Assembly (NCBI GenBank): GCA_035544875.1 | Contig: DASZZP010000038.1 | Span: forward strand, 64,147-128,146 | From: Thermoanaerobaculia bacterium | GTDB taxonomy: Bacteria; Acidobacteriota; Thermoanaerobaculia; Multivoradales; UBA5704 | DNA length: 64,000 bases | Direction: 5' to 3' | In this document: positions 29,089 to 61,199 of the stretch, in pieces | Numbering within the stretch: position 1 is the stretch's first letter | Layout of the letters: each line of letters opens with the position of its first letter | The notes under the pieces: model-generated | What the model saw: the letters and a program-made list of their open reading frames with translations, nothing else | The model's database searches: none | Told to the model about the DNA's origin: nothing | Translations under genes and position numbers: made by a program

Positions 29089-31407
29089 TCAGGAGAAACG
29101 CTCTCCCAGGCGCTCGATCACCTGGGCAAGATCGGGCACCGTGGTCAGCACCGGCGCCAGAGGGTCCTCGCGCAGCCGGCGCAGGCGGGCGGGGACGGTG
29201 GCCAGAGTGAAGGCGCGCACGTCGAGGCGCGCGCCGACCTCGCGCCAGGTGAGGGGGGTCGAGACCGGGGCACCGGGGAAGGGGCGTACGGAGAACGGTG
29301 CGGCGAGCAGCTTGCCGCGGCCGTTTTGCAGGGCGTCGACGTAGACCCGGCCGCCGCGGGCCGGGATCGCCCGGACGGTGGTGGCGATGCGCGGCAGGCG
29401 GGCGACGACGAGCCGTGCCAGGAGCTCGGCGAGCTGGCGCGACTGTTCGTGGTCGAACTGTCCCCCGAGGGGCAAGAGGACATGCAGGCCGCTGCCGCCG
29501 CTGGTCTTGATGAAGGCGGTGAGGCCGATCTCCTCGCACAGCTCGTGGATCTCGCGGGCGATGTGGATGACGTCGGCGAAGGGCGCTCCCTTCGGATCGA
29601 GGTCCAGGATGCACCAGTCCGGCCGCTCAAGGGCGGCGAAGCGGCTCGACCAGATGTGGAGCGGGATGGCGCCGAGGTTGACCAGGGTGAGCAGCGATTC
29701 GACGCTGTCGCCGAGGAAGGCGTCGATCGTGCGCTCCCCGGCCTCGCCCTGCAGCCGCACGCTGCGCAGGCCGGCGCGGGAGGCTGCGTGGAGCGTCTCG
29801 GCGCTCTTCTGGAAAAACGACTTGCCGGCGATGCCGTCAGGATAGCGGTCAAGGACCAGCGGCCGGTCGCGCAAGTAGGCCAGCAGCCAGGGGCTGACGG
29901 CGTAGTAGTAGCGGGCGAGATCGCCCTTGGTGTAGCCCTCGTCGGGCCAGAACACCTTTCCCGGCCGCACCAGCTCGATCGGCAGCTCGCCCGTCGCATT
30001 CGAGCCCGGCACCGCTGGAGCCTGCCCCTCGCGCCCCCCACGCCCGCCGGACCCGCCACCCCGCACCGCTGCGCGGCCCGGACTCTCTCCGCCGACCGTG
30101 CCACGACCGGCCGGGACACCTCCCGCCGCCCCTCCCGGTTCTGCCGCGCGGCCCGCGCGCCGCCGGCCGGCGGCGCTCTTCCTCACCGCTGGCGGCGCCG
30201 ATGCCCCTGACTCCACCTGCGGCACCGATCCAGGGGTCGGCTCTCGCTCTTCCTCCGGAGCGGCCGCGTCCAGATCTTCGGGATGCCGGCAGTCTTGCGC
30301 CCTCTTGTCGTCGCGCAGGCGCAGGAAGATCGGTTGGCGCAGGCTGCCGCCTTCGGTCCACTCCTTGTAGCGGACTTCGCAGACCAGCTCGGGAGCGACC
30401 CAGACCGTCGACCGGTCCGCCCGCGCCGTGTCGCCGCGCAGCCCGAGGGCGGCCGGCTGGCGCCGGCGGGCGCTGGCGAGCCGGGCGGCGATCGCGGCGC
30501 GGGTCGCGCCGTTCCAGCCGCTGCCGACGCTGCCGGCATAGAGCAGACCGCCAGGGGTGTGGACCGCCATCTGCAAGGCCCGCAGGTCGCCGGACGCGGC
30601 CATCACGAAGCCGACCACCGCGAAGTCGCCGCTCCGGTCGACCCGGATCTTCTGCCAGTCGGCCGAGCGCCCGGCCTGGTAAGGGGAGTCGGCGCGCTTT
30701 GCCATGATCCCCTCGAGGCCCAGCCCCGCGACCGCCGCGAATAGCTCTTCGCCGCGCTCGGGCAGCTCGTCGACATAGCGCAGCGTCCCCCCGCCCTCGC
30801 CCGTCGCCAGCACCTGGCGCAGCGCCGACTTGCGGGCCGCGAGCGGCAGCGGCCGCAGATCGAAACCCGCGCAGGCCAGCAGATCGAAGGTGAAGAGGGT
30901 CGCCGGCGCGGCGGCCGCCGCCCGCGATGTGTCGGCGCCCGGTTGGCGCAGCGCCCGCTGCTGCAGCAGGCCGAAGCTCGGCCGAAAGGCCGCGTCCAAG
31001 ACCACAACTTCGCCGTCGACGACGAGGTCCGGGAAGGGCAGCTCGGTCACCGCGGCCACCAGCTCCGGGAAGAGCTGCGTGGCGTCGCGGCCGCTCCTGT
31101 AGAGCAGGCGCACTCTCCCGGCATCCTTGCCGGCGAGCATGCGGAAGCCGTCGTACTTGAGCTCGAACCACCAGCCGGGACCGCTGAACGGCCGCTCGCG
31201 GGTCTCGGCCTGCATGGGCACGACCTCGGCGACGTTGACCGCCAGGCGCGGCGCGCCCAGCCGGGTCAGCAGGCGGCGCAGCTCGGGGGCCGAGCCGGCC
31301 GCCGGCGCTCCAGCACCGCCGGCAGCGCCAACGCCGGCAGCGGCGCCGCCGGCGCGGCGGCCGCCGCCGCTCGGGGTTGCGTCCTGTCGTTTCTTTCCGC
31401 GCGCCAT
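29089..31407 (-). CDS. ligD: ATP-dependent DNA ligase LigD (ligase domain plus C-terminal polymerase/primase domain)
   Basis: ELKYDGFR is the adenylation Lys motif, and ligase motifs III-V follow (LEGIMAKR). The C-terminal LigD-Pol domain includes GKSFFQK, FIKTSGGSGLHV and YVDALQNGRGK. An alternative start at the Met at 31215 has a better RBS. Confidence 0.85.
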   Translation of the reverse strand: MARGKKRQDATPSGGGRRAGGAAAGVGAAGGAGAPAAGSAPELRRLLTRLGAPRLAVNVAEVVPMQAETRERPFSGPGWWFELKYDGFRMLAGKDAGRVRLLYRSGRDATQLFPELVAAVTELPFPDLVVDGEVVVLDAAFRPSFGLLQQRALRQPGADTSRAAAAAPATLFTFDLLACAGFDLRPLPLAARKSALRQVLATGEGGGTLRYVDELPERGEELFAAVAGLGLEGIMAKRADSPYQAGRSADWQKIRVDRSGDFAVVGFVMAASGDLRALQMAVHTPGGLLYAGSVGSGWNGATRAAIAARLASARRRQPAALGLRGDTARADRSTVWVAPELVCEVRYKEWTEGGSLRQPIFLRLRDDKRAQDCRHPEDLDAAAPEEEREPTPGSVPQVESGASAPPAVRKSAAGRRRAGRAAEPGGAAGGVPAGRGTVGGESPGRAAVRGGGSGGRGGREGQAPAVPGSNATGELPIELVRPGKVFWPDEGYTKGDLARYYYAVSPWLLAYLRDRPLVLDRYPDGIAGKSFFQKSAETLHAASRAGLRSVRLQGEAGERTIDAFLGDSVESLLTLVNLGAIPLHIWSSRFAALERPDWCILDLDPKGAPFADVIHIAREIHELCEEIGLTAFIKTSGGSGLHVLLPLGGQFDHEQSRQLAELLARLVVARLPRIATTVRAIPARGGRVYVDALQNGRGKLLAAPFSVRPFPGAPVSTPLTWREVGARLDVRAFTLATVPARLRRLREDPLAPVLTTVPDLAQVIERLGERFS

Positions 31408-31441
31408 CGAAAAACCGCGTAAGGAATGGTATATTAGCCGA

Positions 31442-32515
31442 ATGAGCGCGCGACCCTTCGCTTCAGGAATGGTTTCTTTCGGCCTGGTCACGATCCCGGT
31501 GAAACTTTACTCGACGGGTGAAGCCGCGGCGGGCATCCAGCTCAACATGCTGCACAGCAAGTGCGGCACACGGCTCAAGCAACAGTATGTCTGCCCGACC
31601 GATGACGAAATCGTTGGAAGAGAGGAAATGGTGAAAGGCTATGAATACGCCAAGGGCCAGTATGTCCTCTTTTCCGAAGAAGAGCTGAAAGCGCTCAACC
31701 GCGAGGCGACCAACACCATCGAGATCGCCGAGTTCGTGCCCATCGAGGAGGTCGACCCGATCTACTTCGAGAAATCGTATTACCTGGGTCCGGACAAGGG
31801 CGGCGAGCGTCCGTACCGCCTGCTCGCCGAAGCGATGAAGACCACCTCGCGCGCGGCGCTGGCGCGCTATGCCGCGCGCGGCAAGGATTATCTGGTTCTG
31901 ATCCGCCCCTTCGAGGAAGGGCTCATCATGCAGCAGCTCCGTTATCACGACGAGCTGCGCTCGTTCTCCGAAGTGCCGATCGCTCCGGCCGAGGTCCGCG
32001 AGCCGGAGCTCAAGCTTGCCATCCAGATCATCGATCAGATCGCCACCGACCGCTTCGACCCCGCGGCTTACGAGGACCAGGTCAGGAAGCAGACGCGCGA
32101 GCTGATCGACAAGAAGGTGGCCGGCCAGGAGATCACCGCCGCCCCCGTCGAGGCGCCGAAGGCGCAGATCATCGACCTCATGGCGGCGCTCAAGGCCAGC
32201 CTGTCCTCCGGGAGCGCTGTGGGCAAGCCGTCGCGCCGCGCGGCCCGGTCCGCCGCCAGCCGTCCAGCCCGCGCCACCCTCGCGACCAGCGCCAGCGTGG
32301 AGCCGGCCCCCGCGGCCGCACCGTCCCGCGCCGCCGCCGCCGCAGCGACATCGCGCTCCACGGGTTCGCAACGTGGCGCGCGCTCTGCGCAGTCCCGGCC
32401 CAAGGCGGCGGCCACCGCCGACCGCAAGCCGCCGCACCCTTCCCCGCGCCAGTCGCTGCGCGAGGCCCCCGTCACGGCGCCTTCCCTGACCAGGAAGCGA
32501 GATTCGAAGCGCTGA
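31442..32515 (+). CDS. ku: Ku end-binding protein (NHEJ) with a basic C-terminal tail
   Basis: MVSFGLVTIPVKLYS...YEYAKGQYV is the Ku core. It is divergent from ligD with only 34 bp between the two start codons. The TATATT -10-like box abuts the ATG, so the mRNA may be leaderless. Confidence 0.9.
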   Translation: MSARPFASGMVSFGLVTIPVKLYSTGEAAAGIQLNMLHSKCGTRLKQQYVCPTDDEIVGREEMVKGYEYAKGQYVLFSEEELKALNREATNTIEIAEFVPIEEVDPIYFEKSYYLGPDKGGERPYRLLAEAMKTTSRAALARYAARGKDYLVLIRPFEEGLIMQQLRYHDELRSFSEVPIAPAEVREPELKLAIQIIDQIATDRFDPAAYEDQVRKQTRELIDKKVAGQEITAAPVEAPKAQIIDLMAALKASLSSGSAVGKPSRRAARSAASRPARATLATSASVEPAPAAAPSRAAAAAATSRSTGSQRGARSAQSRPKAAATADRKPPHPSPRQSLREAPVTAPSLTRKRDSKR

Positions 32516-32551: not shown

Positions 32552-33433
32552 ATGGATCGCCCTTCAGCTCGCGGCGGCTATTCGATGCGCGAGGTGGCGG
32601 CCCTGCTGGGCCTGACCGCGGCGCAAATCCGCTCCTATGTGCGCGCCGGCTTCGTCTCTCCCGAGATGGGGCCGCGCGGCGAGCTGCTCTTCTCGTTCCA
32701 GGACCTGGTGCTGCTGCGCACCGCCAAGGCTCTCGCCGCGGCACGCATTCCGCTCCGCCGCATCCGCATCGCGCTCGAGAACCTGCAGGAGCAGCTGCCG
32801 CAGGGGCAGCCGCTGACCGGGGTGCGCATCTCGGCGCAAGGGCACCATGTGGTGGCGCGCGATGGCGGCGAGGCGTGGCACCCCGAGTCGGGCCAGACGC
32901 TGCTCGATTTCGAGGTCGCGGAGCTCGAACGCCAGGCGGCCGCGCTCGGTCCCCACCTCGCCGCCGTCCCTCCGCTTGCCTCCGCCGCCGCGGCGCCTGC
33001 CCCGCTGCAGGAGACGGCCAGCGCCGCCGACTGGTACGAGCGCGGCGTCGAGCTCGAGGACGAGGCCCCGCTCGAGGCGGTCCAGGCCTACCGGCAGGCT
33101 CTCGAGCTCGCGCCCGGGCTCGCCGACGCCCACCTCAACCTGGGCCGCCTGCTGCACGAGAGGGGCGACGTGCCGGCCGCCGAACGCCACTACCGCCAGG
33201 CCCTCGGCGCGCGGCCGGGCGACGCGGTAGCCGCCTACAACCTGGGCGTCGCCTTGCAGGACCTCGGGCGGCTACGGGAGGCGGCCGTCGCCTACGAGGA
33301 GGCGCTCGTCAGCGACGAGAGCCTGGCCGACGCCCACTTCAACCTGAGCGGCGTCTACGAGGAGCTGGGCGAGCGCGCCGCCGCCTTCCGGCACCTGAAG
33401 ATTTTCCGCGCTCTCCTCGGCGGCACGCAGTAG
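32552..33433 (+). CDS. MerR-type HTH plus TPR-repeat protein
   Basis: YSMREVAALLGLTAAQIRSYVRAGFV is a MerR HTH. The C-terminal part carries TPR repeats (AYRQALELAPGLADAHLNLG..., AYNLGVAL..). Confidence 0.7.
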   Translation: MDRPSARGGYSMREVAALLGLTAAQIRSYVRAGFVSPEMGPRGELLFSFQDLVLLRTAKALAAARIPLRRIRIALENLQEQLPQGQPLTGVRISAQGHHVVARDGGEAWHPESGQTLLDFEVAELERQAAALGPHLAAVPPLASAAAAPAPLQETASAADWYERGVELEDEAPLEAVQAYRQALELAPGLADAHLNLGRLLHERGDVPAAERHYRQALGARPGDAVAAYNLGVALQDLGRLREAAVAYEEALVSDESLADAHFNLSGVYEELGERAAAFRHLKIFRALLGGTQ

Positions 33434-33445
33434 CTCGGCCGCCGC

Positions 33446-35590
33446 CTATTGCGCATCCTTGGCCGCCGAGGCTCCGGCGGCTGCAGAGGTCTCGCCTGCC
33501 GTGGCGGGGGGCTCGGCCGCGCCGCCGCCTGGAGGCGCGCCGGGTGCCGCGGCACCGGCACCGGATTCCGCCTCCCAGGGCTCGCGCGCCGCCGCTCCGG
33601 CGCCGGCCGGTCCGCCTGCACCGGCGGCCGCTCCCGCCTCGGCCCCGCCTGCACCGGCGGCCGCGCCGCCCGCGGCGACTGCCGGCTCGGCTGCTCCTGC
33701 TGCGCCGCTGCCCACCGCGGAAGCGTCGCCAACCTCCGGCGTCGCCAGAGGCGCCAGCGCGGGCGCGGCCGTCGCCTGCTCCACCGGCCGGGGCTCGGCG
33801 ACCGGCTCCACCGGCCGCGCCTCCTCGAGAGACCGCTCCGCCTCGGCAGACCGTCCCGACCTGGGGGATCGTTCCGACTTGCGTAGCCGCTCCGCGGAGG
33901 AAGAGCGCTTGGCCTTACGAGGCCGTTCCGCCCTTGGCGCCCGCTCCGCCGCCGCGCGGTTTGCCTGCCCGCCCGCCGCCTCGGCCCGCATCGCCTCCAC
34001 GCTGGCTGGCTTCGCCTTCGCCCTTCCGGCCTTCGCTCTTGCCTTCACTGCCTTCGCCCTCCCGGCTCTCGCTCTCGCCTTCTCGGGCTTCGGCTTCGCT
34101 CCTCCGGCCTTCGCCTTCACCCTTCCAGCCTTCGCCCTCACCCTTCCGGCCTTCGCCTTCACCTTCCTGGGCTTCGCCTTGGCCTTGGCGGCTTTCGCCT
34201 TCGCCTTGTCGGGCTTGGCCTTCGTCTTGGGCCCTGCCTTCGCCTTCCCCGCTTTTTCCTTCGCCTTTACTTTTTCAGGCTTGGCCGCAGTATCCGCGGT
34301 TCTTGTCTTGGTCTTGCTGGATTTCGCCTTCGCCAGCGAGGCGCTCTCCCCGGCCTCGAGCTCCGGGAAGTGCCGCACTCCTCCCGAGCGGCGGGCCGGC
34401 TGCGCCCCTGCGGACAAACCCTGCCTGGCCGCCTTCTTGTTCACGACCCGCTCCTCGCCTTTCTTCTTCGGCTTGGCCGCCGGCAGCGACTCGGGCACCG
34501 GCCGCTCGCGCCACGCGTTCCAGTCTTCCTTCACCGCCTCCAGCATCTGCCAGGCGGCACGGTGCAGCCAGCCGCTCTCGCGCGAGGCGAGGTCGACCAG
34601 CAGGGCGTGCGCGGTGCGGCTGCCGAGGTGGATGTTGGCGGTCTCCCATCCCATGGCTTCGAGCAGGCGGATCTCGTCGCGCTCCTTCGGGAGCTCGTGG
34701 AGCTCGATGCGCGTGCAGTCGGGCGCCAGCCGGCGCACCATCCAGCGCCTCCTCAGCTTCACCCAGGGATCGACGCTACGGATGGCCTTGTCGACGATCA
34801 TCTGGTAGAGGATCTTCGTCTCGCCCTCGCCGCCATGCGCCCACACCGCGGCCGAGGGCGCCAGCGCCTTGGCTTCGCGCGCGATCCTTCCCCCCTGCCA
34901 CTCGGCCAGCGCCACGAAGCGCTGCCTCCCCAGGCTGCCGAGGCCGGCGACCCGGTGCACGATGCGGCGCGGCAAGTCGGGCCTGGGAAGCATCTCGGAG
35001 AGCGCCTGGACCGCCTTGGGCGGCACGTCGCCCTTGAGCTTGGGAATGCTCTCCATCTTGTGCCAGAAATCCCCCGGATCGGCCAGCCGGTGAACCGCCA
35101 TGTGGCGCAGCGCTTTCCAACGCTCGGCGAGGACCAGCGCCTTGCCGCCCGCCTCGAGGGCCGCCTGGTAGCCGCGCAGGATCGCTTCGTCGGCCTCTTT
35201 GGCCGAGATGCGGACCAGCTGGCTGCTCTCCACCGCCAGATGAGCGCTGGTGGCGACGCGAACCAGGTCGTGGACATAGGGCAGCCGGCAGGTCTCGTCG
35301 AAATCGTTGATACCCCAGACCAGGCGTCCCTCGGCGTCGCGCCAGGTGCCGAAGTTCTCGATGTGCAGGTCGCCGACCGCCAGCACCTCGGGCGCTCCGG
35401 CGAGGTCGCTGCAAACCTCGGGGAAGATCTGGGCCCAGCGGTAGTAGGTGGCGCGCAGGAAGGGGAAGGCCGCCTGGCTCATCCGCTGGTGCTTGAGGTC
35501 GAGGTCGGCGCGGATCAGGAAGAGCTGCTCGCCAAGCCAGCTTTCATAGGACTTCGTCGCCTGTTGGATCGTCATGCGAGGGGAGCTCAT
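33446..35590 (-). CDS. DUF2252-domain protein with a long C-terminal Lys/Ala-rich (histone H1-like) low-complexity tail
   Basis: The N-terminal 400 aa have DUF2252 motifs (ATYYRWAQIFP, VGDLHIENFGTWRD.EGRLVWGINDFDE). The tail is AKAKAKPRKVKAKAGRVRAKAGRVKAKAGG.... Confidence 0.75.
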   Translation of the reverse strand: MSSPRMTIQQATKSYESWLGEQLFLIRADLDLKHQRMSQAAFPFLRATYYRWAQIFPEVCSDLAGAPEVLAVGDLHIENFGTWRDAEGRLVWGINDFDETCRLPYVHDLVRVATSAHLAVESSQLVRISAKEADEAILRGYQAALEAGGKALVLAERWKALRHMAVHRLADPGDFWHKMESIPKLKGDVPPKAVQALSEMLPRPDLPRRIVHRVAGLGSLGRQRFVALAEWQGGRIAREAKALAPSAAVWAHGGEGETKILYQMIVDKAIRSVDPWVKLRRRWMVRRLAPDCTRIELHELPKERDEIRLLEAMGWETANIHLGSRTAHALLVDLASRESGWLHRAAWQMLEAVKEDWNAWRERPVPESLPAAKPKKKGEERVVNKKAARQGLSAGAQPARRSGGVRHFPELEAGESASLAKAKSSKTKTRTADTAAKPEKVKAKEKAGKAKAGPKTKAKPDKAKAKAAKAKAKPRKVKAKAGRVRAKAGRVKAKAGGAKPKPEKARARAGRAKAVKARAKAGRAKAKPASVEAMRAEAAGGQANRAAAERAPRAERPRKAKRSSSAERLRKSERSPRSGRSAEAERSLEEARPVEPVAEPRPVEQATAAPALAPLATPEVGDASAVGSGAAGAAEPAVAAGGAAAGAGGAEAGAAAGAGGPAGAGAAAREPWEAESGAGAAAPGAPPGGGAAEPPATAGETSAAAGASAAKDAQ

Positions 35591-35724: not shown

Positions 35725-37275
35725 TCAGCGCTCGTACGACGTTTCACGGTCGAGCACCGCCAGCGTCTGCTCATAGATCGAGTCCGCCTCCTCAGGGGTG
35801 TCGGCGATCGCGGTGACGCCCAGCTTGCCGAACTCGGACACCGCGCCGATCAGGTGGAAGAGGACCCCTGACTCCGAACCGAGGCTGTAGTGCAGCCGGT
35901 TGACGGTCAGGATCTCGATCAGGTCGTCCGGCAGCAGCCCGCGGTAGGCCTCCGACTGCAGGTTGTCGGTCGCGCGGTAGCACTTCGGGTGCCCGGTCGG
36001 GGTCCAGAACTGTCCGGTCGCGGCGTCGAGCGAGCCGCCGGTCAGGAACTGCAAGGCGAGGTAGGGGTGAGTGGTGCCGCCCATCCGCAGGTTGATCTCG
36101 AGCGCTGCCAGATTGAAGGGTTCGTCTGGCAGATCGCGCCAGATCAGGAAGTCGACCGCGAAGCGGCTCACCACGCCGCGCGCCGCCAGCACCCCGCCGA
36201 TCTTCACCCCGGCCTCCTGGATGCGCAGCCGGTAGGCGTCGCGGGCCGGGAAGCGGCAACCGAGGAAGATCTGCTCGGAGGCGCCGCCCAGGATCTGATC
36301 GTGCGAGGAGATCACCAGGACCTCGCCCTGCGGGCTGATCCGCAGCTGGACGCTGGGCGAGACTTTCTCGCGGCCGCCGATGAATTCCTCGACGATGCCG
36401 CCCATGGCGGCGAACTTCTCGAAGTAGCTGGCCGGGGTCTCGTCGTCGACCGAGAGCTCGAGCGCCCAGAGCGCCTCGTCGATCACCGGCCGCGAGGCGA
36501 CGCCTCCCGCCGCCGCCGCGGGCGGATAGCGAAAGATGGCGTTGCCCTCGCCCGAGAAGCTCTCGTCGAGCTTGATCACCGCCTTGCGCAGGCCGGGACG
36601 GCGGCGCCCGAGCTCGGCGAGCGCCCCGACCACGTCGCGCCGGTCGCGCAGGTCTTCGGCCCCTTCGGGCAGCGGCACGCCGGCCTCGCGGAAGACCTTG
36701 CGGCTGCCGGACTTGCTGCCGAGATGGGAGAGGCTCGGGTCGACGCCGTTCAACGGGATCCCGAGCAGCACCGCCAGCTGGCGCTCGAGAGGGGTGGAGT
36801 TGAAGACCGTGAGATAGGCCCGGGCAGGGTCCTGGATGCCGTCGCGGATGCGCTGGATCAGGCGCGGCCGGGCAAGGATCTTCTCGGTGAGTGAGCGCGG
36901 CGAGGCGTCGTACGCGCAGAGCAGGGTGAGCCGCGCCCGCGCGTGGCTCGCCGGGATGCCGGCCAGCAGCTGGAAATAGTACTCGAGGATCATCGGGTGG
37001 ACCGGCTGCGAGGTGACGTAGACCATGCGCGCCCGCGGGTTGCGCATCCGGATGAGCAGGAAGAGCAGGCGCTCCTCATAGAAGCTGGCCCCCGCCAGCT
37101 TCTCGAGCCCGCCGCGGTCGAGAGTCAGCGACGGCACCACGACCGAGGTGTGAGGTTCCTGATCGCGCAGGGTCAGCGCCTCCCAGACGTCCGCGAGCCG
37201 CGGCTTGAGCGCCTCGAAGGCGGCGATCTCCTGCTCCAGCGACAGCTCCCAGGGAAAGAGGGGCTTGCCGGTCAT
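35725..37275 (-). CDS. PGM1-like ATP-grasp peptide/amide ligase
   Basis: It has the pre-ATP-grasp N-domain (LFPWELSLEQEIAAFEALKP...) and an ATP-grasp core (VIKLDESFSGEGN, GGTTHPY). The true start is the Met at 37275, which overlaps the upstream stop as ATGA. Confidence 0.7.
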   Translation of the reverse strand: MTGKPLFPWELSLEQEIAAFEALKPRLADVWEALTLRDQEPHTSVVVPSLTLDRGGLEKLAGASFYEERLLFLLIRMRNPRARMVYVTSQPVHPMILEYYFQLLAGIPASHARARLTLLCAYDASPRSLTEKILARPRLIQRIRDGIQDPARAYLTVFNSTPLERQLAVLLGIPLNGVDPSLSHLGSKSGSRKVFREAGVPLPEGAEDLRDRRDVVGALAELGRRRPGLRKAVIKLDESFSGEGNAIFRYPPAAAAGGVASRPVIDEALWALELSVDDETPASYFEKFAAMGGIVEEFIGGREKVSPSVQLRISPQGEVLVISSHDQILGGASEQIFLGCRFPARDAYRLRIQEAGVKIGGVLAARGVVSRFAVDFLIWRDLPDEPFNLAALEINLRMGGTTHPYLALQFLTGGSLDAATGQFWTPTGHPKCYRATDNLQSEAYRGLLPDDLIEILTVNRLHYSLGSESGVLFHLIGAVSEFGKLGVTAIADTPEEADSIYEQTLAVLDRETSYER

Positions 37276-38387
37276 GCGCTGGTCTGGGTCATCCGGTCCA
37301 GGAGTCGATCTTCGTGGAGGTCGGGCTGGTGGCCGAGCGCCTCGGCGCGGCGCCGCAGCTGGCGGTAGGCGAAGTAACGCAGCGGCCCCCACAGGGTGCA
37401 CTCGGTCGTCCATTTCAGGCGGGCATCGCTGCTGCCGTCCGGGAGCTGGCGGCTCAGGATCTCGCGCCGCTCCGCCACCCACTCGCCGCTGACCTCGCCG
37501 CGCCGCAGCTTGGCCTCGAGCAGCTCGAGCAGGCCGGGACGGTCGACGATCTCCGGATGGTGGTTGACGCCGAACACCCGGGGCATTGTCCCGTCCCGGT
37601 CGCGCGCCAGCTCGGCCATGGTCAAGGCATCGCCCCGCGGCCCGCCGGCGCCCAGGGTCTCATAGCCGATCGGGATCGTCCCCGGCGGCAGCGGCCGCGG
37701 CCAGGGGAGCAGGTCGAACAGCCGGTTGTCGAGCACCAGCAGGCGCCCGCCCGGTGCCAGGGCGGCCGCGAGCTCGCCGCCGGCGCGGCCGAAGAAGCGG
37801 CTGAACCAGGGGTGGGCCTCGGCCTCGGGGGTCAGCATGCTCTCCAGCACGCCCGAGCTCTTCCCCCCTTTTTCGGCGCCGCGCAGCTCGGGCCGCGCGA
37901 TCCCCGACCAGCGGCACATGACGCCAAAGCTGTGGCAGACGGCGAGCAGCACGGCGCCGGGGTCGGCCTGGATGGCGTCGAAGAGCTGGAACAGCGGTGC
38001 CTCCCAGGAGGGGTCCTCGCGGATCCCCTGGCAGCCGGGCGTCACGCCGTCGTTGCGGTGGGGATCGAGGTGGCCGGGCCCGCCGGTGCCGAGGTAGATC
38101 GTATAGCGGCCTCCCGGGAGCTCCGGCAGCATGCCGTGGCGGCGGACGTCGAAAGAGAGGACACGGAGATGGACCCCGGTGCGGTGGCGCAGCCGGAGGA
38201 GATCCTCGTTCTCCTCGAGCAGCGAGCGGACGAGGGAATCGTGGCCTAGGTTCGGCCAGCCGTGGTTCATGTCGAGCACGGCCACGTCGACGGCCTGCTC
38301 CTCGGCCGGCGGGATCTCGTGCGGCCGCTCGATGCGGACATAGCGCGAGTCGTTCTGGCCCGCCGGCGGCATCGCTCGCTGTTCCAT
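37272..38387 (-). CDS. Class-I glutamine amidotransferase-like protein
   Basis: LLAVCHSFGVM is the nucleophile elbow, and GTGGPGHLDP and HHPE are also present. Its stop overlaps the ATP-grasp start. Confidence 0.7.
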   Translation of the reverse strand: MEQRAMPPAGQNDSRYVRIERPHEIPPAEEQAVDVAVLDMNHGWPNLGHDSLVRSLLEENEDLLRLRHRTGVHLRVLSFDVRRHGMLPELPGGRYTIYLGTGGPGHLDPHRNDGVTPGCQGIREDPSWEAPLFQLFDAIQADPGAVLLAVCHSFGVMCRWSGIARPELRGAEKGGKSSGVLESMLTPEAEAHPWFSRFFGRAGGELAAALAPGGRLLVLDNRLFDLLPWPRPLPPGTIPIGYETLGAGGPRGDALTMAELARDRDGTMPRVFGVNHHPEIVDRPGLLELLEAKLRRGEVSGEWVAERREILSRQLPDGSSDARLKWTTECTLWGPLRYFAYRQLRRRAEALGHQPDLHEDRLLDRMTQTSA

Positions 38388-38420: not shown

Positions 38421-39512
38421 CTAGCAATCTGGCTTCCGGCCCTGCACCGCTTCGCCGCAGCCGCCGCCGCACTCGTCCTGCTCGAGCTGGACCGTCACGT
38501 GATGGATGCCGAAACGGGCGTCGAGAGTCCCGCGCACCTCCTCGAGGGTCGCGCCGCGCGCCTCGGTGTCGCTGACCACGAGGTGGGCCGAGAGCGCCTC
38601 CTTGCCCGAGGTGATCGTCCAGACGTGAAGGTCGTGGACTCCCAGCACCCCGGGGACGCCGGCCAGCGCCTCGCGCACCTCGACCACGTCGAGGTGCTTG
38701 GGCACTCCCTCCATCAGCACCCCCACCGATTCCTGCAGCAGCGACCACGCCGAGTAGATGACCAGCAGGGCGATCACGATCGAAGCCGCCGGATCGGCCC
38801 AGCGCCAGCCGTAAGCCCAGATCAGGGCGCCGGCGACGATGGTCTGCGCGCTGCCGAGAGCGTCGGTCGCCACGTGCAGCCAGGCGCCGCGCACGTTCAG
38901 ACTCTCCGCCCGGCCGGCGGCGAGCAGCTGCAGGCCGACCAGGTTGAAGAGCAACCCGCCGGCGGCGATCGCCATCATGACCGGCGCATCGACCGCGGGC
39001 GGCTGGGCCAGGCGCCGGAAGGCCTCGACCAGGACATAGATCGAGATCGCCACCAGGGTGGCGCCGTTGGCCAGCGCGGCCAGGATCTCGGTGCGGTGGT
39101 GGCCGTAGGTGCGGGTCGGCGTCGGCGGCCGCCGCGCGATGCGGATCGCGAACACCGAGAGCCCCAGCGCCGCCACGTCCGACAGCATGTGCCCGGCGTC
39201 GGCCAGCAGGGCCAGCGACCCGGTGATGTAGCCGCCCACCGCTTCCGCCACCATGTACGCCGCCGCCAGCCCCAAGGTCCACAGCAGCCGGCGCTCGTTC
39301 GCCGTCCCGGCGGCCCCCGCCGCCCCCGCCGAAGCACCGTGCGCGTGCCCGTGGGCATGGCCGTGGGCATGCCCATGCGCATGCCTGCGCCTGGCGGGTG
39401 CCGGCGCCTCTTCCGCGGGCGTGGCTAGCGCGGGCGCCAGCGCGGACCGCTTCTCCCCTGCTGCCGGCGGCGCCGGCGGCGCCTGCTGGGAGAACGTGGG
39501 GTGGTTGGCCAT
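38421..39512 (-). CDS. czcD: Cation diffusion facilitator (CzcD-like Zn/Co/Cd exporter) with an N-terminal (HG/HA)n metal-binding tract
   Basis: HAHGHAHGHAHGHAHG precedes 6 TM segments with HMLSD...HVATD motifs and a C-terminal cytoplasmic domain. The start is the Met at 39512. Confidence 0.8.
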   Translation of the reverse strand: MANHPTFSQQAPPAPPAAGEKRSALAPALATPAEEAPAPARRRHAHGHAHGHAHGHAHGASAGAAGAAGTANERRLLWTLGLAAAYMVAEAVGGYITGSLALLADAGHMLSDVAALGLSVFAIRIARRPPTPTRTYGHHRTEILAALANGATLVAISIYVLVEAFRRLAQPPAVDAPVMMAIAAGGLLFNLVGLQLLAAGRAESLNVRGAWLHVATDALGSAQTIVAGALIWAYGWRWADPAASIVIALLVIYSAWSLLQESVGVLMEGVPKHLDVVEVREALAGVPGVLGVHDLHVWTITSGKEALSAHLVVSDTEARGATLEEVRGTLDARFGIHHVTVQLEQDECGGGCGEAVQGRKPDC

Positions 39513-39723
39513 GGCCCTACTAGAGTACCAGCACCTCGGCCGCCCGGTCTTCCCCCCCGGCCGGGAAGGGTCGGGCCTCCAGCGCAGCTGCCTCGAGGAG
39601 GCTTTTCCAAAGAGTTGGGTAGCCCGCGCGCCCGATGAAAGCGCTGAAAGCGCGCTCGCCAACGCCCGAGCATTCTCTACCCGGCGCTGGCCGTGGGCAC
39701 GTCTCTCGCGAGCTCAGTCGATC

Positions 39724-42438: not shown

Positions 42439-43341
42439 TCATCGCGTGACAGTTTCGCGGTACCAGCGGCAGCCGCGGCGCAGGGGGCAGAGCTCGCAGC
42501 GCGGGGCAGCGCGGCGGCAGAGCTCCTGGCCGTGACGCCGGAGAAGCTGATGGGCCTCGATGAGCCAGCTGTAGTCGTCGGGGAGCTGCGGCGCCACGGC
42601 GGCCGCGGCGGAGCGGTATTGCTGGGTGTACTTCGGGCTCTCCTGGCCGAAGCCGAGGCGGATCAGGACGCGCAGCGCGTTGGAGTCGGCGCCGAGGCTG
42701 CGGGCGCCGCGGGCGAAAAGCATGATCTTGTCGGCGCCCGGCTCGCCGATGCTCGGGAAGCGGCGCAGGAGCTTGTGGCCGCTGCCGGCGGCCACCCGTA
42801 GGGCGAGCTCCCGCTCGCCCATCTCGAGCGCGATGGCCGCCGCCTGCTGCAGCTTCGCGGCGCGATGGGCGGGCAGCATCCCGCCGCCGGCAATGACCTG
42901 CGCCAGCGCCTCGGGGGGACGACCGAGCAGCGCCTCCGGGTCGATTCCGACCTCGCGGCGCAGGCGCTCGAAGACCGCCAGGCGGCGCTCGTCGTCGACC
43001 AGGTAGCCGACGTTCTCCCACACCACCTGAGCGAAGGGCTCGGTGACGTGCGGCGGCGCCGGAGCGCCGTAGTAGTCGCGCAGCCGGCCGACGATCGAGA
43101 GCAGGTCGGGCAGATCGCCGCGCCCAGCCTGGTCGGATGCCGGGTCGCGACCTGCCGGGAGATCCCTCCGGGGAATGCCGCTCGTCCACCGCGGACGAGC
43201 GGCGGCCGGCAATGGTAGATGGGCCGGCCGACCCCGCGATTCTTTCGGAGACGCGGGGTTCCTGCCCCGCGGTTTTTTCGGAGACGCGGGGTCCCCGCCC
43301 CGCGGTTTTTTCGGAGACGCCGGGTCCCTGCCCGGCGTCAC
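42439..43341 (-). CDS. HhH-GPD / endonuclease III-family DNA glycosylase-like protein with an N-terminal PKKPRG (AT-hook-like) repeat tail
   Basis: [16 protein letters not shown] is a helix-hairpin-helix. C-x6-C-x2-C-x5-C ([17 protein letters not shown]) is a [4Fe-4S] loop. The GTG start overlaps the pncB stop as GTGA. The N-terminal [11 protein letters not shown] x3 is encoded by the tandem repeat at 43241-43339. Confidence 0.6.
43241..43339. repeat. 3 x 33-bp tandem repeat (ccccgcgRttYtttcggagacgcSgggtYcctg); each unit is an internal hairpin ccccgcg...cgcgggg
   Basis: Seen directly. It lies at the 5' end of the HhH-GPD ORF on the minus strand. Confidence 0.7.
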
Positions 43342-48336: not shown

Positions 48337-49317
48337 TCAGCGCTGCGGTGCCGGTGGAGGCTTCGGCCCTGTCTTTGACTCGCGATAGCCGGCGTTTCTG
48401 GCGTCGGCCTCGGTCATGCATTGGCCGTGCTTGGTCTTGCCGTACCAGCGCTCGCCCTCGCGGTAGAACACCTTGCTGCCGGGGTTTGCCCAGACCATGT
48501 CCTTGGCGCACTGCCGCGCTCCGGCCTCGACGGTGCCCGCGCCGCCCGCGCTGCCGGTAGCGCCCGCCGGAGCCGCGTTCGCGCCACTCGCCCCAGGAGC
48601 TCCCGCCGGACCCGCTGTGCCCGCCGGACCGCCGGCCGCCGGCGGCGAGGCGGGAACGGGAGGCGAGGCTGCGCCGGCCGCGGCAGCCGGCATCGCCGAA
48701 GCCTTACCGGCCGAGGCGTAGGGGGCCAGCTTCGCGATCGCCGCGGCCGGCAGACCGGCGCGCATCAGGTCTTCCACGGTCGAGTAGGGACGCGCGGCGA
48801 TGATCTTCTTCGCGATCGCCGGCCCCACCCCGGGAAGCGTCGTGAGCTGTTTCTCGGTCGCGGAATTGAGGTCGACCTTCGGGGCCGGGGGTGGCAGCGC
48901 GCCGAGCGCCCTCTCCTGGGCGGGCGTCCTGGCGGTGCCCGGCCCCGCCGCGCCGCGGAGCGCAGGCGGGGTGGGAGGCGCTCCCGTGGCTGCCTGCTCT
49001 CCCCGCCGTTCAGTTCCGGCGGCGGCACCTACGGTCACCAGCCGCGCGATCTGATCGACCGTCTTGGCCGGCACCCCGGCCCTGATCAGGTCGGTCACGG
49101 CGGCGTAGGGACGCCCGGCAACGATCTTCATCGCCGTGGTGGAACTGACCCCCGGCAGCTTCTCGAGCTCCTTCATACTCGCCAAGTTGATGTCGATCAA
49201 CCCAGGAGGTTGATTGGCCGCCGACGCCGCCAACCAGCCGGTCGATGCCACCGTCATCGCCAAGGCCAGGCAGAGTGCGGTCCAGGCGAGCCGGCACCTG
49301 CTGCTCGTTGCGTTCAT
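48337..49317 (-). CDS. ComEA-like secreted DNA-binding protein (two HhH modules) with a C-terminal Cys-pair domain
   Basis: IDINLASMKELEKLPGVSSTTAMKIVAGRPYAAVTDL and VDLNSATEKQLTTLPGVGPAIAKKIIAARPYSTVEDL are two ComEA helix-hairpin-helix units. The start is the Met at 49317, which gives a signal peptide. Confidence 0.75.
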   Translation of the reverse strand: MNATSSRCRLAWTALCLALAMTVASTGWLAASAANQPPGLIDINLASMKELEKLPGVSSTTAMKIVAGRPYAAVTDLIRAGVPAKTVDQIARLVTVGAAAGTERRGEQAATGAPPTPPALRGAAGPGTARTPAQERALGALPPPAPKVDLNSATEKQLTTLPGVGPAIAKKIIAARPYSTVEDLMRAGLPAAAIAKLAPYASAGKASAMPAAAAGAASPPVPASPPAAGGPAGTAGPAGAPGASGANAAPAGATGSAGGAGTVEAGARQCAKDMVWANPGSKVFYREGERWYGKTKHGQCMTEADARNAGYRESKTGPKPPPAPQR

Positions 49318-49427
49318 CGGCTCTTCTCCTTTCGCGGCGTGCCCCGTGCCAGTATCGCGCGGGCTGGCACCCGCCGCCGAGCTCATTCAGGAGACGGCGA
49401 CAGCCGCGGCGCCTCGCCCGCTCACCT

Positions 49428-50819
49428 ATGATAGAGCCTATGGAACGCCAAGACCTCATCGCCAGATACCGCGCGACGCGAGCTCTGAGCGTTGCGCTCT
49501 GCTCCCCCTTGGCGTCCGAGGACTACCGCGTCCAGTCGATGCCCGACGTCAGCCCGCCGTGGTGGAACCTGGGCCACACCACGTGGTTCTTCGCCAAGAA
49601 CATCCTCGAGCCCTTCGGCCGCTATGGCGCCGGCGACGCGCGCTTCGAATATGCGCTGAACTCGTACTACGAGTCGCTGGGGCCGCGCCTGGCCCGCGAC
49701 CACCGCGGGCTGGTGACCCGCCCGACGACCGCCGAGATCTACCGCTTCCGCGCCTCGGTCGACGAGCGCTTCGGAGCTCTGGTCGCCGAGGCCGGCGAAG
49801 CCGATTACCCGCGGCTGCAGTTCCTAGCCCTGACCGGCATCCAGCACGAGCAGCAGCACCAGGAGCTGCTGGTGACCGAGATCAAGCACATCCTGGGCTC
49901 GAACTTGCCCGAGCTCCGCGAGCCCTACCTGCCCGCGGCGGGCGGCGGCACGCCGCCGGCGCTGGCGGAGCGCGAGCCCGATCCGGCCGGCCGCGTCGCA
50001 CCCTCCGGGCCGCTGCCCGCGCGGCCGGTCGCGTTTGCCGGCGGCCTGTTCGAGTTCGGCAACCTCGAGGGAGGCTGGTGCTGGGACAACGAGATGCCCG
50101 TGCACCGGGCCTATCTCGAGCCTTTCGTCCTGCTCGACCGCCTGGTGACCAATGGCGAGTACCTCGAGTTCATCGAGCAGGGCGGCTACGCCGACCCCCT
50201 GCTGTGGCTGGCCAACGGCTGGGCGCGGGTGCAGGAGGCCGGCTGGTCGGCGCCGCTCTACTGGGAGCGCGAGGGCGGCAGATGGCAGCTGTGGACGCTC
50301 GGCGGCCGGCGCGCCCTCGACGTCGACGAGCCGGTCTGCCACGTCAGCTTCTACGAAGCCGACGCCTATGCCCGCTGGCAGGCGCGCCGCGGCGGCGCCT
50401 CGGCCGGCGCTCGCCTGCCGACCGAACGCGAATGGGAACATGCCGCCCGCGTCGCCGGATTCCCGGGACCGGCGCCGAACTTCCTGGAGAGCGGCAGCCT
50501 CCACCCGCGCCCGTTCGCGCGGCCGGGCGCGCCGGCAGCGCAGGGGCCGCCCGCGGCGGCCGAGGACATGGGGATGGCGCAGCTCGGGGGTGACGTGTGG
50601 GAATGGACCTCCAGCCACTACGAGCCCTATCCCGGCTACCAGCCCTTCGACGGCAATCTGATGGAATACAACGGCAAGTTCATGGACAACCAGCGCGTCC
50701 TGCGCGGCGGCTCCTGCGCCACCCCCGCCGCGCACATCCGGCCCAGCTACCGCAACTTCTGGCCCGCCGACACCCGCTTCCAGTTCACCGGCATCCGCCT
50801 CGCGCTGCCCATGGCCTGA
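49428..50819 (+). CDS. egtB: EgtB-like sulfoxide synthase (DinB_2 plus FGE-sulfatase domains)
   Basis: WWNLGHTTWFF...EQQHQELL is the DinB_2 iron-binding triad. GGDVWEWTSS...RVLRGGSC is the FGE/SUMF1 domain. Confidence 0.75.
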   Translation: MIEPMERQDLIARYRATRALSVALCSPLASEDYRVQSMPDVSPPWWNLGHTTWFFAKNILEPFGRYGAGDARFEYALNSYYESLGPRLARDHRGLVTRPTTAEIYRFRASVDERFGALVAEAGEADYPRLQFLALTGIQHEQQHQELLVTEIKHILGSNLPELREPYLPAAGGGTPPALAEREPDPAGRVAPSGPLPARPVAFAGGLFEFGNLEGGWCWDNEMPVHRAYLEPFVLLDRLVTNGEYLEFIEQGGYADPLLWLANGWARVQEAGWSAPLYWEREGGRWQLWTLGGRRALDVDEPVCHVSFYEADAYARWQARRGGASAGARLPTEREWEHAARVAGFPGPAPNFLESGSLHPRPFARPGAPAAQGPPAAAEDMGMAQLGGDVWEWTSSHYEPYPGYQPFDGNLMEYNGKFMDNQRVLRGGSCATPAAHIRPSYRNFWPADTRFQFTGIRLALPMA

Positions 50820-56946: not shown

Positions 56947-59900
56947 CTACTGGTGAGAGTATTCGGGCGACGTAGCCGCCTCGCCTCTCCTGTCGAGCTC
57001 AGCCAGCAAGGCGAATAGCTTCCCCAGATTGGTTGGCTTGAGCAGATGCACATCGAAACCGGCTTCCCGCAAGCGAGCCCTATCGGCCTGATACCCGGTC
57101 AGGGCGACGAGAAGCACCCGCTTGCCAAGCACCTCGCGAAGGTTATGGGCAAGCTCGTAGCCGTCCATCTTGGGCAGCCCCAAGTCCAGGAGCACTACCT
57201 CGGGCTTGAGCTCTCCCACGACAGTCAGCGCGGCGACCCCGTCGGGCACCGCTCGGGCTTCGTGCCCCTGAATGGTCAAGATCTTCACCAGCGCCTCGGC
57301 AGCGTCCATCTCGTCGTCGACGACCAGGATCCTGCGAGCAGTGACCGGGAACAGAGCGGCTTGCTCCTCCTCGGGTGTGGCGAGACGTCCACGGCGCAGC
57401 CGTGGCAGCGTCACCACGACCTCGGTGCCCTTGCCCGGCCCGGCGCTGAATGCGTCGACGTGCCCCCCGTGCATCTGCACCAGGCTACGGACGAGCGCCA
57501 ATCCGAGCCCCAGACCCCCTCTTGCGCGGTGGAGACTTGCCGGAGCCTGCGTGAACAGGTCGAAGACGTGCTCGAGCACTCCCGGCTCCATGCCGATGCC
57601 TGTGTCTCGAACCGAGAGTTTGACCGTGTCATCCGTCGCGTCCACGGAGAGCCAGATCCGGCCCCCGTTGTCGGTGTACTTCGCCGCGTTTCCCAGCAGG
57701 TTCTCCATCACCTGCGCTAGTCGCACCGCATCCCCCAGCACTAGGACGGTCCCTCCCGGCGGCAAGGAAACCGTGAGCTCATGCTGGGCGGCCTCGAGCA
57801 TCGGCTTCACGCTTTCGATCGCCGCCTTGGCTGCCTCCGCGACATCGGCCGCATCCCGCGTCAGCTCGAACTTCCCCGAGATGACCCTCGCCACATCCAG
57901 GAGCTGGTCGAGCATCGCTGTCATGCGCCGGGTCTGCCTCTCCATCATGGCTCGGATCTGCTCGACCGAGCCGCCGCCGGTCAGGCGCATGAGATCGAGT
58001 CCCGTGGTGAGCGCCGCCAACGGATTGCGCAGCTCATGGCCGAGCATCGCGAGGAACTCGTCCTTGCGTCGATCGTCCTGCGCCAGCTCGTCGGCTCGGC
58101 TCTGGGCTACTATCTCGGCCTTGCGCAGGTCGGTCACGTCCTCGATCGATACCAGGATGAGGTCGGGGCGGCCGTTGCGCGCCATCACATCGGCATTGAG
58201 TCTCATGCTGCGCCAGCCGATCCTCTCGAACAAGTGATCCACGTCGTAGTCACGGATCTCCCGCTCTCTGCGGAGGGCCTCTTCCAATAGAGCCCGCACC
58301 CTGGGAATGTCCCATTGCCCGTTGCCGAGCTCGTAGATCCGTCGGCCCTCCGTTTGCTCCTCGTCGATCTGGAACGTCGCATAGAACGCCGCGTTCGCCG
58401 AGACGACGCGGTGGTCCATGTCGAGGACGAGAAGGGGCGTGCGTGAGGTCCGGATGATTGCCTCCGCATAGAGCCGGGCGTGCTCACTCGCGGCAGCCGC
58501 CTGCTTTTGCACGGTGATCTCGTGAAAGGTTAGGCAGACTCCGTCGATCTCTTCCTCTTCGGTGCGGTAGGGAAGGATTCTCCTCAAGAACCATCGACCG
58601 TCCTCGGTCGACACCTCCACTTCGATGGGCGCGTGCTCCGCCAGCACGCGCACGGCATCGGAAAGCATGTTGTCGTCGCGGACCTGCATCTTGATATCAG
58701 GAAGCGAGCGGCCGATGTCGGCCGGGACGATGCGCATGACCGTGGCGCACGCAGGCGTAAAGCGCCGGATCCGGAGCTCGCGGTCGAGGAAGATGGTGGG
58801 AACGTTGGCGCTCATCAGCAGATTGTTGAGGTCCGAGGTGAGGGAGCGCAGCTCCTCGTTTCTTTCCTCCAGCTGACGGTTGATGGTCGTCAGCTCTTCG
58901 TTCAGGGATTGCAACTCTTCCTTCGACGACTCGAGCTCCTCGTTGCTCGACTGAAACTCCTCGTTTAGGGAGAGGAGCTCTTCGTGGCTTGCGCTGTGCT
59001 CCTCGGTGGCGGTCCTGAGCTGATCGACCGCGGCCCGTAGCTCATCCCTTGTATCCTGGAGCTCCTGCTGGATCTGGCCTGTGAACGACCCAGCCTCCCC
59101 ACCAGCCTCATCCGCGGCGAAGGAGGGCCCAGCCGACATCGGGAGGTCTCGGAAGGCAACGAGGAATAGCCCGCCGGCACGCGAGACGGACGTGATCGGC
59201 TCGATGACGATCTCGATCCGAGGGGCGGTGTCCCGCTCCAGCCGCATGCCAGTGACCGTAACCAGCCGTTTGTGCTCGATGGCCTCGGCGAGGCCGGACC
59301 GCAGCCTTGCGTACAGCTCGGGCCGCACCCAGGAGAGCAAGTCCAACTTGGCCTCGCCCTGGGGCCGCGTCAGGTACTTGTCCGTCGGCCCGAAGAAGTA
59401 GAGGATCTCGAGTCCCTGGCCAATCACCACGCAGGGCGAGGTGTACCGTTGAAGCACCAGCTTCTCGATCAGGCGGGGGGCCTTCTGTGTCTCCGTCGGT
59501 GCCCGTCGCTCCCGTAGAGCGCGCACCGGAGCCAGCTCGGCTGCCCGGTGCGCCATGCGGTAGCGGTGAGCCCGCGCGAGCCCTATGGAGCGATAGATCC
59601 GGTGCTTGCCCGCAACCTCCTCGAAGAGATCGGTCCGCCGGCCGATCGTCTCGGAGGCGCCGAGCCATAATGTACCTTGGGGCCGAAGCGAGAAGTGAAA
59701 GAGCTCGAGCAAGCGCTCTTGCGCGGACGGCTCGAGGTAGATGAGCACATTGCGGCAGCTCACCAGCTCGAGGTGGGGAAACGGTGGATCGGAGAGCAGG
59801 TCATGGGCCGCGAACGTGACCGCGTCGCGCAGGGGGCGCTCGACCTCGAAGCCCTCGCCGGAGCGCCGAAAGAACCGTCGCAAGCGATCAGAGGAAACGT

Positions 59901-61026: not shown

Positions 61027-61199
61027 TTCTCACACCGGCTCGTCGCGAGGCGCCGCAAACGGGCCTAGATCCAAGGCGCGCGCGGGTCGGACGACCGAGG
61101 CGTGCTCGAAGCACGTCGAGGGAGTCCGACCGAGCGCAACGCAGGAGATAGGCCCGTTTCCGGAGCCGCAGCAGAGGTGGTGTGAGAAATGGGGGCTAG
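61016..61199. promoter_or_regulatory. Perfect 21-bp inverted repeats (ctagcccccatttctcacacc ... ggtgtgagaaatgggggctag) flanking a ~142-bp segment; the left copy contains the start codon and RBS of the CheB/CheR hybrid gene
   Basis: Seen directly. The IRs are at 61016-61036 and 61179-61199. The start codon (61026-61024, minus strand) is inside the left IR. There is a nested IR aaacgggccta/taggcccgttt. The right copy starts a 17-codon ORF on the plus strand. Confidence 0.55.

Follow-up and report, generated by a model that had tools for sequence, protein, structure and literature searches.

Gene pairs in which an ATP-dependent carboxylate-amine ligase adjoins an amidotransferase-fold hydrolase are known from PuuA/PuuD, IpuC/IpuF, AtdA1/AtdA2 and EgtA/EgtC, where a gamma-glutamyl group is put on and later removed again. 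The ligases of these systems are glutamine synthetase/glutamate-cysteine ligase (GS/GCS)-like and not ATP-grasp enzymes, oxidising or modifying enzymes stand between the two steps, and EgtC is a class-II, not a class-I, amidotransferase. A comparable arrangement is found in a stretch of 64,000 nucleotides from a Thermoanaerobaculia bacterium (phylum Acidobacteriota; contig DASZZP010000038.1, positions 64,147 to 128,146), hereafter the window, in which a gene for a glutamine amidotransferase (GATase)-like protein, designated GATL, overlaps the gene for an ATP-grasp ligase, designated AG. The general kind, an amide ligase with an amidotransferase-fold enzyme, is already known and has been predicted bioinformatically. 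Not described in the searchable literature is the combination met here, a GATase family that is invisible to Pfam and altered at its S1 site, paired across Acidobacteriota with an ATP-grasp ligase of the BesA/PGM1 clade; no published account of the pair was found in the literature that could be searched by full text. GATL and AG are probably the conserved core of a small-molecule amide-bond system in Acidobacteriota.

A sequence-only reading of the window had called the upstream gene class-I GATase-like, and the assignment is borne out by fold, by an intact Cys-His-Glu triad and by transitive homology, not by Pfam. GATL matched nothing in Pfam or NCBIfam even at E<=1, PF00117 GATase and Peptidase_C26 included, and its sequence had no significant match in the PDB, where the family profile found only a marginal one, to GMP synthase (GuaA) at the F-G-V-x-x-HPE motif (E 0.21). 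The AlphaFold2 model (predicted local distance difference test, pLDDT, 87; predicted template-modelling score 0.89) has a nucleophile elbow made up by strand 146-150, Cys151 and helix 152-161. In the translation, residues 147-158 read LLAVCHSFGVMC and include AVCHSFG (LLAVCHSFG), and GVNHHPE is found at 273-279; the predicted triad is composed of the nucleophile Cys151 (AVC151HSFG), His277 and Glu279 (NHH277PE279), the oxyanion-strand motif is G100TGGPG105, and residues 283-369 form a C-terminal helical extension of about 90 aa. C151, H277, E279 and G102-G103-P104-G105 do not vary across 30 members of the family, and triad and GGPG are equally unvaried in a joint alignment of 15 sequences which includes Bacteroidota relatives.

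When the GATL model was compared with the PDB by Foldseek, 68 matches were found at E<=1e-3, and all of the 50 listed have the class-I GATase fold. The best is the Arabidopsis gamma-glutamyl peptidase GGP1 (9k7k, E 7.5e-11 to 1e-9), about 1000-fold better in E than the structures that follow, namely MetA (homoserine O-succinyltransferase), PabA, the GATase domains of GuaA, SpuA, which is a gamma-glutamyl-polyamine hydrolase, TrpG, CTP synthase and CarA. No PfpI/DJ-1 enzyme, a family to which such a protein might have belonged, is among the top 50 structures, nor was one matched in Pfam or NCBIfam. With GGP1 and the MEROPS C26 group, and with the gamma-glutamyl-amine hydrolases PuuD and SpuA, GATL shares the Cys-His-Glu triad, the class-I GATase fold and the main-chain oxyanion hole; it differs from GGP1 in overall sequence (13-14% identity), in the C-terminal helical extension, in long conserved inserts and in the S1 residue, Gly in place of Gln.

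The residue at C+4, four positions after the nucleophile, is Gly155 (CHSFG) without exception in GATL. It is Gln in the Bacteroidota relatives and in P0349 (CHSFQ, CYSFQ), and also in GGP1 (Q104) and in canonical GATases (C-x-G-x-Q). According to the GGP1 structure paper the C+4 Gln recognises the glutamyl alpha groups, and the S1 architecture, common to C26 peptidases and class-I GATases, is gamma-glutamyl-specific (PMC12958103). GATL thus belongs to the class-I GATase fold and keeps the catalytic apparatus intact, with an S1 site that is atypical. P0349, a divergent member of the family which carries PF00117, provides the transitive bridge to Bacteroidota 'type 1 glutamine amidotransferases'. 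Since an exhaustive profile search of 1.84 billion cluster representatives returned only 269 clusters at E<=1e-3, mostly fragments, the family is compact and isolated in sequence. Many homologues (alignment A1; P0052, P0053, P0074 and P0117 are examples) have a Cys-rich N-terminal extension of about 30 aa, M-P-I-A-C-R-x-K-...-F-C-x3-C-P-x3-P-C-G-x-F, possibly zinc-binding, which is missing from the GATL of the window and from its nearest relatives.

AG had been read as a PGM1-type ATP-grasp ligase with a pre-ATP-grasp domain and a grasp core. The core and the PGM1_C domain are matched in Pfam (ATP-grasp_IQCH, 1.7e-22, 80.5 bits, cut-off 27; PGM1_C, 1.3e-12, 47.5 bits, cut-off 22.5) and the PGM1/BesA clade is right; PreAtp-grasp scores 13 bits, under its cut-off of 27.5, and within the clade BesA is a much nearer relative than PGM1. 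The sole NCBIfam match is BesA (NF042917, 1.4e-48), at 165.8 bits against an equivalog cut-off of 750. In the PDB only BesA (8yi6) was found by sequence, at E 2e-40 with the single sequence and 2.8e-51 with the family profile, and PGM1 was detected by neither search. The model of AG (pLDDT 71, residues 37-127 of low confidence) matches in Foldseek, in this order, BesA (2.5e-25), 8ynd/8ynq (8ynd 5e-16), PGM1 (3wvq/3wvr, about 1e-14), then biotin carboxylases and PurK. ATP-grasp elements are recognised in K235 (AVIKLD), in the loop SFSGEGN (239-245), in the pair EE (296-297) and in E393-I-N395-L-R397, and K235, S239-N245, E296/E297, E393, N395 and R397 are unvaried in 25 homologues. Judged from these elements, AG is a BesA/PGM1-clade enzyme that looks active, and the gap of 166 versus 750 bits indicates that it is not a BesA ortholog. 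Membership of a well-characterised family would have made the ligase commonplace; neither cyanophycin synthetase nor glutathionylspermidine synthase was matched in Pfam or NCBIfam at E<=1.

BesA is the L-propargylglycine--L-glutamate ligase of Streptomyces cattleya. AG agrees with it in ATP-grasp subfamily fold and in the order of domains, is 27-30% identical to it over nearly the full length, the sequence alignment beginning at residue 56, and shares the motifs GSKSG, SPS, HDQxLxG, GCRFPA and EINLR. Unlike BesA, AG has no bes-type neighbours (halogenase, pyridoxal phosphate-dependent lyase, hydroxylase) and is paired with a GATase-fold protein. The likeness to PGM1, the peptide ligase of pheganomycin, and to the Streptomyces peptide ligases 8ynd/8ynq lies in the overall fold and the PGM1_C domain (Foldseek about 1e-14, template-modelling score about 0.67); identity is only 16-18%, and AG has neither a linked precursor peptide nor the context of a secondary-metabolite cluster.

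Relatives were sought in one genome per species and were found in 195 species, of which the best 80 loci were analysed. Almost all are metagenome-assembled genomes labelled Acidobacteriota (Thermoanaerobaculia, Vicinamibacteria, Holophagales), one being labelled Planctomycetota. AG is present in 73 of the 80, and in about 72 of the 78 evaluable loci (about 92%) it is adjacent to and co-oriented with GATL. Among loci lacking AG, two end too early to be judged, and in one AG lies 7 kb off. The order, GATL then AG, is fixed. The estimated distance between GATL stop and AG start corresponds to a 4-bp overlap in 23 of 70 pairs and does not exceed 100 bp in 63; a gap of about 1-1.3 kb occurs in four loci, in three of which (L009, L010, L027) the open reading frame (ORF) call places an NHL/beta-propeller gene between the two. 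Across classes, AG is 69-80% and GATL 53-66% identical to the window proteins. An ATGA overlap is by itself common in operons; what exceeds chance is the conserved adjacency.

These features would suit a single enzyme. GATL and AG might constitute one glutamine-dependent amidoligase, similar in organisation to CarA/CarB or MurT/GatD, in which GATL would hydrolyse glutamine and the ammonia would be channelled to the acyl-phosphate on AG, to yield a carboxamide. That a class-I GATase can work with an ATP-grasp enzyme is known from carbamoyl-phosphate synthetase. A self-sufficient two-gene module, kept as a unit in most loci, the fixed order with frequent overlaps or very short gaps and the unusual conservation of both proteins all speak for it; it accounts better for two genes being enough and for their translational coupling. 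The triad and the oxyanion motif of GATL are intact, and glutaminase subunits (PabA, GuaA, TrpG, CarA) are among its structural matches. Yet the best of these matches is a peptidase and not a glutaminase subunit, the substrate-binding Gln of canonical GATases is Gly155 in GATL, the characterised relatives of AG, BesA and PGM1, use the amines of amino acids or peptides and not ammonia, and no natural GATL-AG fusion is found among the homologues listed. The amidoligase, the main rival of the reading preferred below, is on balance doubtful, and the GATL relatives which live without AG weigh further against it.

Such relatives came to light in a metagenome scan seeded with a divergent GATL branch. 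GATL proteins 41-52% identical to that of the window (clade-B loci L088-L106 and others) are not followed by AG and have a GCS2 gene directly before them. In L088-L106, from soil and peat metagenomes, the genes form a cassette encoding an ATP-grasp-like protein of about 318 aa, GCS2, GATL and a protein of about 409 aa with weak similarity to glutathionylspermidine synthase (GspS) and circularly permuted ATP-grasp enzymes. Bacteroidota GATases (L083-L086) sit in the same four-gene cassette, often with a PF00756 esterase gene first; Bacteroidota and metagenome cassettes are 50% identical in the proteins of about 318 aa and 34% in those of about 400 aa. In L138 an aromatic-amino-acid-lyase-like gene, GCS2, a gene for a 314-aa protein and one for a 488-aa circularly permuted ATP-grasp protein precede GATL. 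The order GCS2, GATL, AG is met in about 15-20% of the loci of window type. The most persistent partners of the wider family are thus GCS2-type and other carboxylate-amine ligases; the GATL clade is always beside ATP-dependent carboxylate-amine ligases, the family of which differs, and the clade of the window is the version with a BesA/PGM1-type ATP-grasp neighbour. A dedicated, co-evolved glutaminase subunit would not be expected beside GCS2 and other ligases in place of AG.

The cassette GATase is the closest detectable outgroup of the window GATL. The two share unvaried R82, P88, GGPG, W128, C151, R169, G179, R222, H277 and E279 and the C-terminal helices, and the order GCS2, GATase, ligase is the same in the cassette and in loci of Vicinamibacteria type. 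The window clade differs in that its downstream ligase is of BesA/PGM1 type and the gene for the protein of about 318 aa is absent, and the window has no GCS2. The ligase-like protein of about 400 aa of Bacteroidota was tried as a homologue of AG and discarded, profile-profile comparison having found only the loop motif K...SFxGxG, with overall similarity not significant. No description of the function of the four-gene cassette was found in the papers that could be searched. The most divergent full-length GATL-like proteins, L081 and L082 (P0349/P0391 clade), are from low-GC bacteria, and there the next gene encodes a Peptidase_M14 carboxypeptidase, not a ligase.

We tentatively prefer to regard the pair as a ligase and a gamma-glutamyl-type amidohydrolase acting on one small metabolite, an assignment about which we are far from certain. 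AG would activate a carboxylate with ATP as acyl-phosphate and join it to an amine, most likely in a gamma-glutamyl-type isopeptide bond. Cys151 of GATL would attack a gamma-glutamyl-type amide, form a thioester and release or transfer the acyl group, so that GATL would remove or turn over the group which the partner ligase installs, following a 'put on, take off' logic. In some lineages the GCS2-type ligase directly upstream would carry out one more ligation. The substrate is probably not a locus-encoded peptide but a free metabolite, for example an amino acid, an amine or a short peptide. Three observations support this proposal: BesA, the nearest characterised relative of AG, links glutamate, through its gamma-carboxylate, to an amino-acid amine, giving a gamma-glutamyl dipeptide; GGP1, the closest solved structure to GATL, hydrolyses a gamma-glutamyl isopeptide; and relatives of GATL adjoin GCS2, the gamma-glutamyl-cysteine ligase family. 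One hydrolase kept while the neighbouring ligase family changes fits enzymes acting in sequence on a metabolite, and the described pairs of a GS/GCS-superfamily ligase and a class-I GATase-fold protein, PuuA/PuuD and similar, are ligase/hydrolase pairs.

Several points weigh against a ligase/hydrolase pair. The conserved core consists of two genes only, with no conserved modifying enzyme between 'put on' and 'take off', and a ligase and a hydrolase alone would cycle futilely if they were neither regulated nor supported by unlinked genes. Both the tight translational coupling and the very strong conservation of the two proteins are typical of the subunits of one enzyme. The Gln which binds the glutamyl alpha groups in GGP1 is replaced at C+4 by Gly155, and because of this replacement the acyl group handled by GATL may not be glutamyl.

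A substrate made by the ribosome was also considered. The pair could modify a protein or ribosomal peptide encoded elsewhere, AG adding an amino acid or peptide tag, as PGM1 and PafA do, and GATL serving as a deamidase or de-tagging peptidase comparable to Dop. PGM1, which ligates onto ribosomal peptides by acylating their N-termini, is a family member, AG has the PGM1_C domain, its very high sequence conservation would suit a macromolecular substrate, and the Cys-rich N-terminal motif of many GATL homologues could bind zinc and mediate protein contacts. No precursor-peptide ORF had been noticed in the flanks of the pair in the window, and the same holds across 70 loci, where ORFs of 18-90 aa within 600 bp of the pair form no cluster common to more than 7; such small ORFs as recur do so in close relatives and are neighbouring genes read in another frame. 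AG is moreover far closer to the free-amino-acid ligase BesA than to PGM1, which even the profile search did not match, and the recurring neighbours (GCS2, class-III aminotransferase, amidohydrolase, AMP-binding enzyme) are metabolic. Tagging is therefore held to be improbable. An ORF of about 55 aa was seen upstream of GATL, on the opposite strand, only in L032, L033, L037 and L038, which are related loci (MxKNPERKPQALSLEVEALEQxCNPGCGSSTTSNKCTCPISxxTxGSLFTAxxTS). A leader and a core rich in Cys, Ser and Thr give it the look of a precursor of a ribosomally synthesised and post-translationally modified peptide; it may have nothing to do with the pair.

The neighbourhood of the pair is otherwise variable, no other gene family accompanying it in more than about 10% of loci. 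Recurrent neighbours are GCS2 (directly upstream, same strand), an Amidohydro_3 protein, a class-III aminotransferase, an AMP-binding enzyme and major facilitator superfamily transporters; the GCS2, amidohydrolase, aminotransferase, NHL and AMP-binding neighbours of other loci are absent from the window. A sigma-54-type -24/-12 element ([TG]GGC-N7-TTGCA) is found upstream of GATL in 11 of 70 loci belonging to at least three lineages (L007, L011, L014, L024, L032, L033, L037, L038, L041, L043 and L060), against 0.7 expected by chance. It lies about 100-190 bp 5' of the start of the GATL tblastn match, which is near residue 16; in the loci inspected, this places it about 30-90 bp before the predicted ATG. 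In the window the element is missing from the DNA directly upstream of the pair. Rfam gave no match to a riboswitch or other known RNA in the window or in seven loci.

A link to ergothioneine or to another low-molecular-weight thiol came under consideration from the presence in the window of a bona fide EgtB gene, about 11 kb from the pair. Here AG would make gamma-glutamyl-cysteine, as EgtA or GshA, and GATL would remove the glutamyl, as EgtC or GGP1. The commonest partner of GATL relatives, GCS2, is the family to which EgtA belongs, and GGP1, the best structural match of GATL, cleaves the gamma-Glu-Cys bond. Of the 80 loci, however, only the two closest relatives, L001 and L006, have EgtB near the pair, so that the link through the EgtB of the window is not supported; no EgtD is adjacent, and in loci with GCS2 there would be no need of AG as a second gamma-Glu-Cys ligase. 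A thiol pathway of this sort is very improbable. The gene that follows EgtB in the window encodes a DUF427 protein on the opposite strand, again with no EgtD adjacent.

The coordinates of the pair and of other features of the window are listed in Table 1. Both ORFs of the pair, and the ATGA overlap proposed for them on the minus strand, were confirmed in the DNA. The junction reads agcgcATGAccggc, the TGA stop (37274-37272) overlapping the ATG start (37275-37273) by 4 bp. The public gene call of the identical contig has both genes with the same overlap, and starts GATL five codons later (Met6, 38372; 366 aa). The genes in the window were chosen by third-position GC, which is 0.92 and 0.85 for the two ORFs, values typical of genes in the window, of about 70% GC overall; GATL and AG are real genes, since each has thousands of homologues. 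All GATL homologues carry the public name 'hypothetical protein', and the protein identical to AG is a 'peptide ligase PGM1-related protein' in an NCBI Thermoanaerobaculia metagenome-assembled genome.

Table 1. Position of GATL, AG and other features in the window.
Feature	Coordinates	Strand	Description
GATL	37272..38387	minus	371 aa; predicted divergent class-I GATase-fold (MEROPS C26-like) protein
AG	35725..37275	minus	516 aa plus stop, read from ATG at 37275; putative BesA/PGM1-clade ATP-grasp carboxylate-amine ligase
ATGA stop/start overlap	37272..37275	minus	4 bp; couples GATL and AG; DNA sequence
CDF (cation diffusion facilitator; ZitB-like) metal exporter	38421..39662	minus	Pfam Cation_efflux 4e-43, ZT_dimer; NCBIfam CDF
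DUF2252 protein with K/A-rich low-complexity tail	33446..35590	minus	Pfam DUF2252; translation
EgtB (ergothioneine sulfoxide synthase)	49191-50819	plus	DinB_2 + FGE-sulfatase; TIGR03440 474 bits, cut-off 360 bits
Tandem repeat	43240-43340	plus	three copies
LigD and Ku	29089-32515	minus (LigD), plus (Ku)	divergent
MerR-TPR regulator	32552-33433		after Ku
CheB/CheR fusion	56947-61029	minus	1360 aa
ORF	3563-6205	minus	880 aa

The pair belongs to a co-oriented minus-strand run (44954 to 33446) made up by genes for NAPRTase, an HhH-GPD glycosylase, a beta-propeller/phosphoesterase protein, the CDF exporter, GATL, AG and the DUF2252 protein. The CDF gene is 33 bp upstream of GATL on the same strand and is probably co-transcribed with the pair in the window, and the DUF2252 gene is 134 bp downstream of AG; no clear promoter or terminator was found between the CDF, GATL, AG and DUF2252 genes of the window. 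Both neighbours had been correctly named from the sequence, as Pfam and translation agree, and they represent local synteny only. They were rejected as components of the system, being kept beside the pair in only 8 of the 80 related loci, all close relatives. The C-terminal tail of the DUF2252 protein (about 350 aa) starts with a histone-H1/AlgP-like K/A-rich repeat (KAKAKAAKAKAKPRKVKAKAGR...), the remainder being A/G/E-rich, and conservation among DUF2252 relatives is limited to the first 375 residues or so.

Three tandem copies of a unit of about 33 bp (TTTTTTCGGAGACGCGGGGTnCCnGCCCCGCGG) separate the NAPRTase and HhH-GPD genes. Each copy, read on the plus strand, looks like a GC hairpin followed by a T-run, similar to a terminator; the flanking genes are on the minus strand. 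Elsewhere in the window, LigD (ligase and primase-polymerase) and Ku are genes of non-homologous end joining, a single ORF fuses a CheB methylesterase, a CheR methyltransferase, PAS domains, a histidine kinase and a receiver domain, and the ORF of 880 aa has a strong coding signal (third-position GC 0.89) and no match in Pfam or NCBIfam.

The Acidobacteriota, of which few have been cultured, rank with the most abundant bacteria of soil. At least 195 species representatives and thousands of metagenomic sequences contain the pair, and GATL is without a family model, so that solving the chemistry would give a function to a large and strongly conserved gene family. GATL/AG may be either a previously unrecognised glutamine-dependent ATP-grasp amidoligase, or the core of an Acidobacteriota-specific pathway for a gamma-glutamyl peptide or low-molecular-weight thiol, related to the multi-ligase cassette shared with Bacteroidota; we place limited trust in this pair of possibilities. 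An amidoligase would be, to our knowledge, only the second type of GATase/ATP-grasp holoenzyme after carbamoyl-phosphate synthetase. Under either possibility, a GATase family that Pfam does not detect and whose S1 site is altered would mean a new enzyme activity and a new, abundant metabolite of soil bacteria. The chemistry, once solved, would reveal a new architecture of glutamine-dependent ligases or a new metabolite of gamma-glutamyl type, and could also explain the GCS2/GATase/ATP-grasp cassettes of Bacteroidota. The module has two genes and its proteins model as soluble, hence it can be tested directly by heterologous expression, enzyme assays and metabolomics. The genome-neighbourhood comparison suggested by the sequence-only reading has been carried out, and its outcome is the conserved, nearly exclusively acidobacterial adjacency described above.

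Two sets of known systems are nearest in logic to the pair. In CarA/CarB and MurT/GatD, as in GATL/AG, a two-gene unit encodes a class-I GATase-fold protein immediately next to an ATP-dependent ligase or synthetase, CarB is itself an ATP-grasp enzyme, and CarA is among the structural matches of GATL (1c30, 1.5e-4). Neither GATL nor AG has a detectable sequence relationship to CarA, CarB, MurT or GatD, and the relatives of AG use the amines of amino acids. The 'put on, take off' logic proposed for the ligase and amidohydrolase is that of PuuA/PuuD and EgtA/EgtC, and also of the BesA pathway and of glutathione synthesis with GGP1, and a self-contained unit which both forms and cleaves a bond is already known in the E. 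coli glutathionylspermidine synthetase/amidase.

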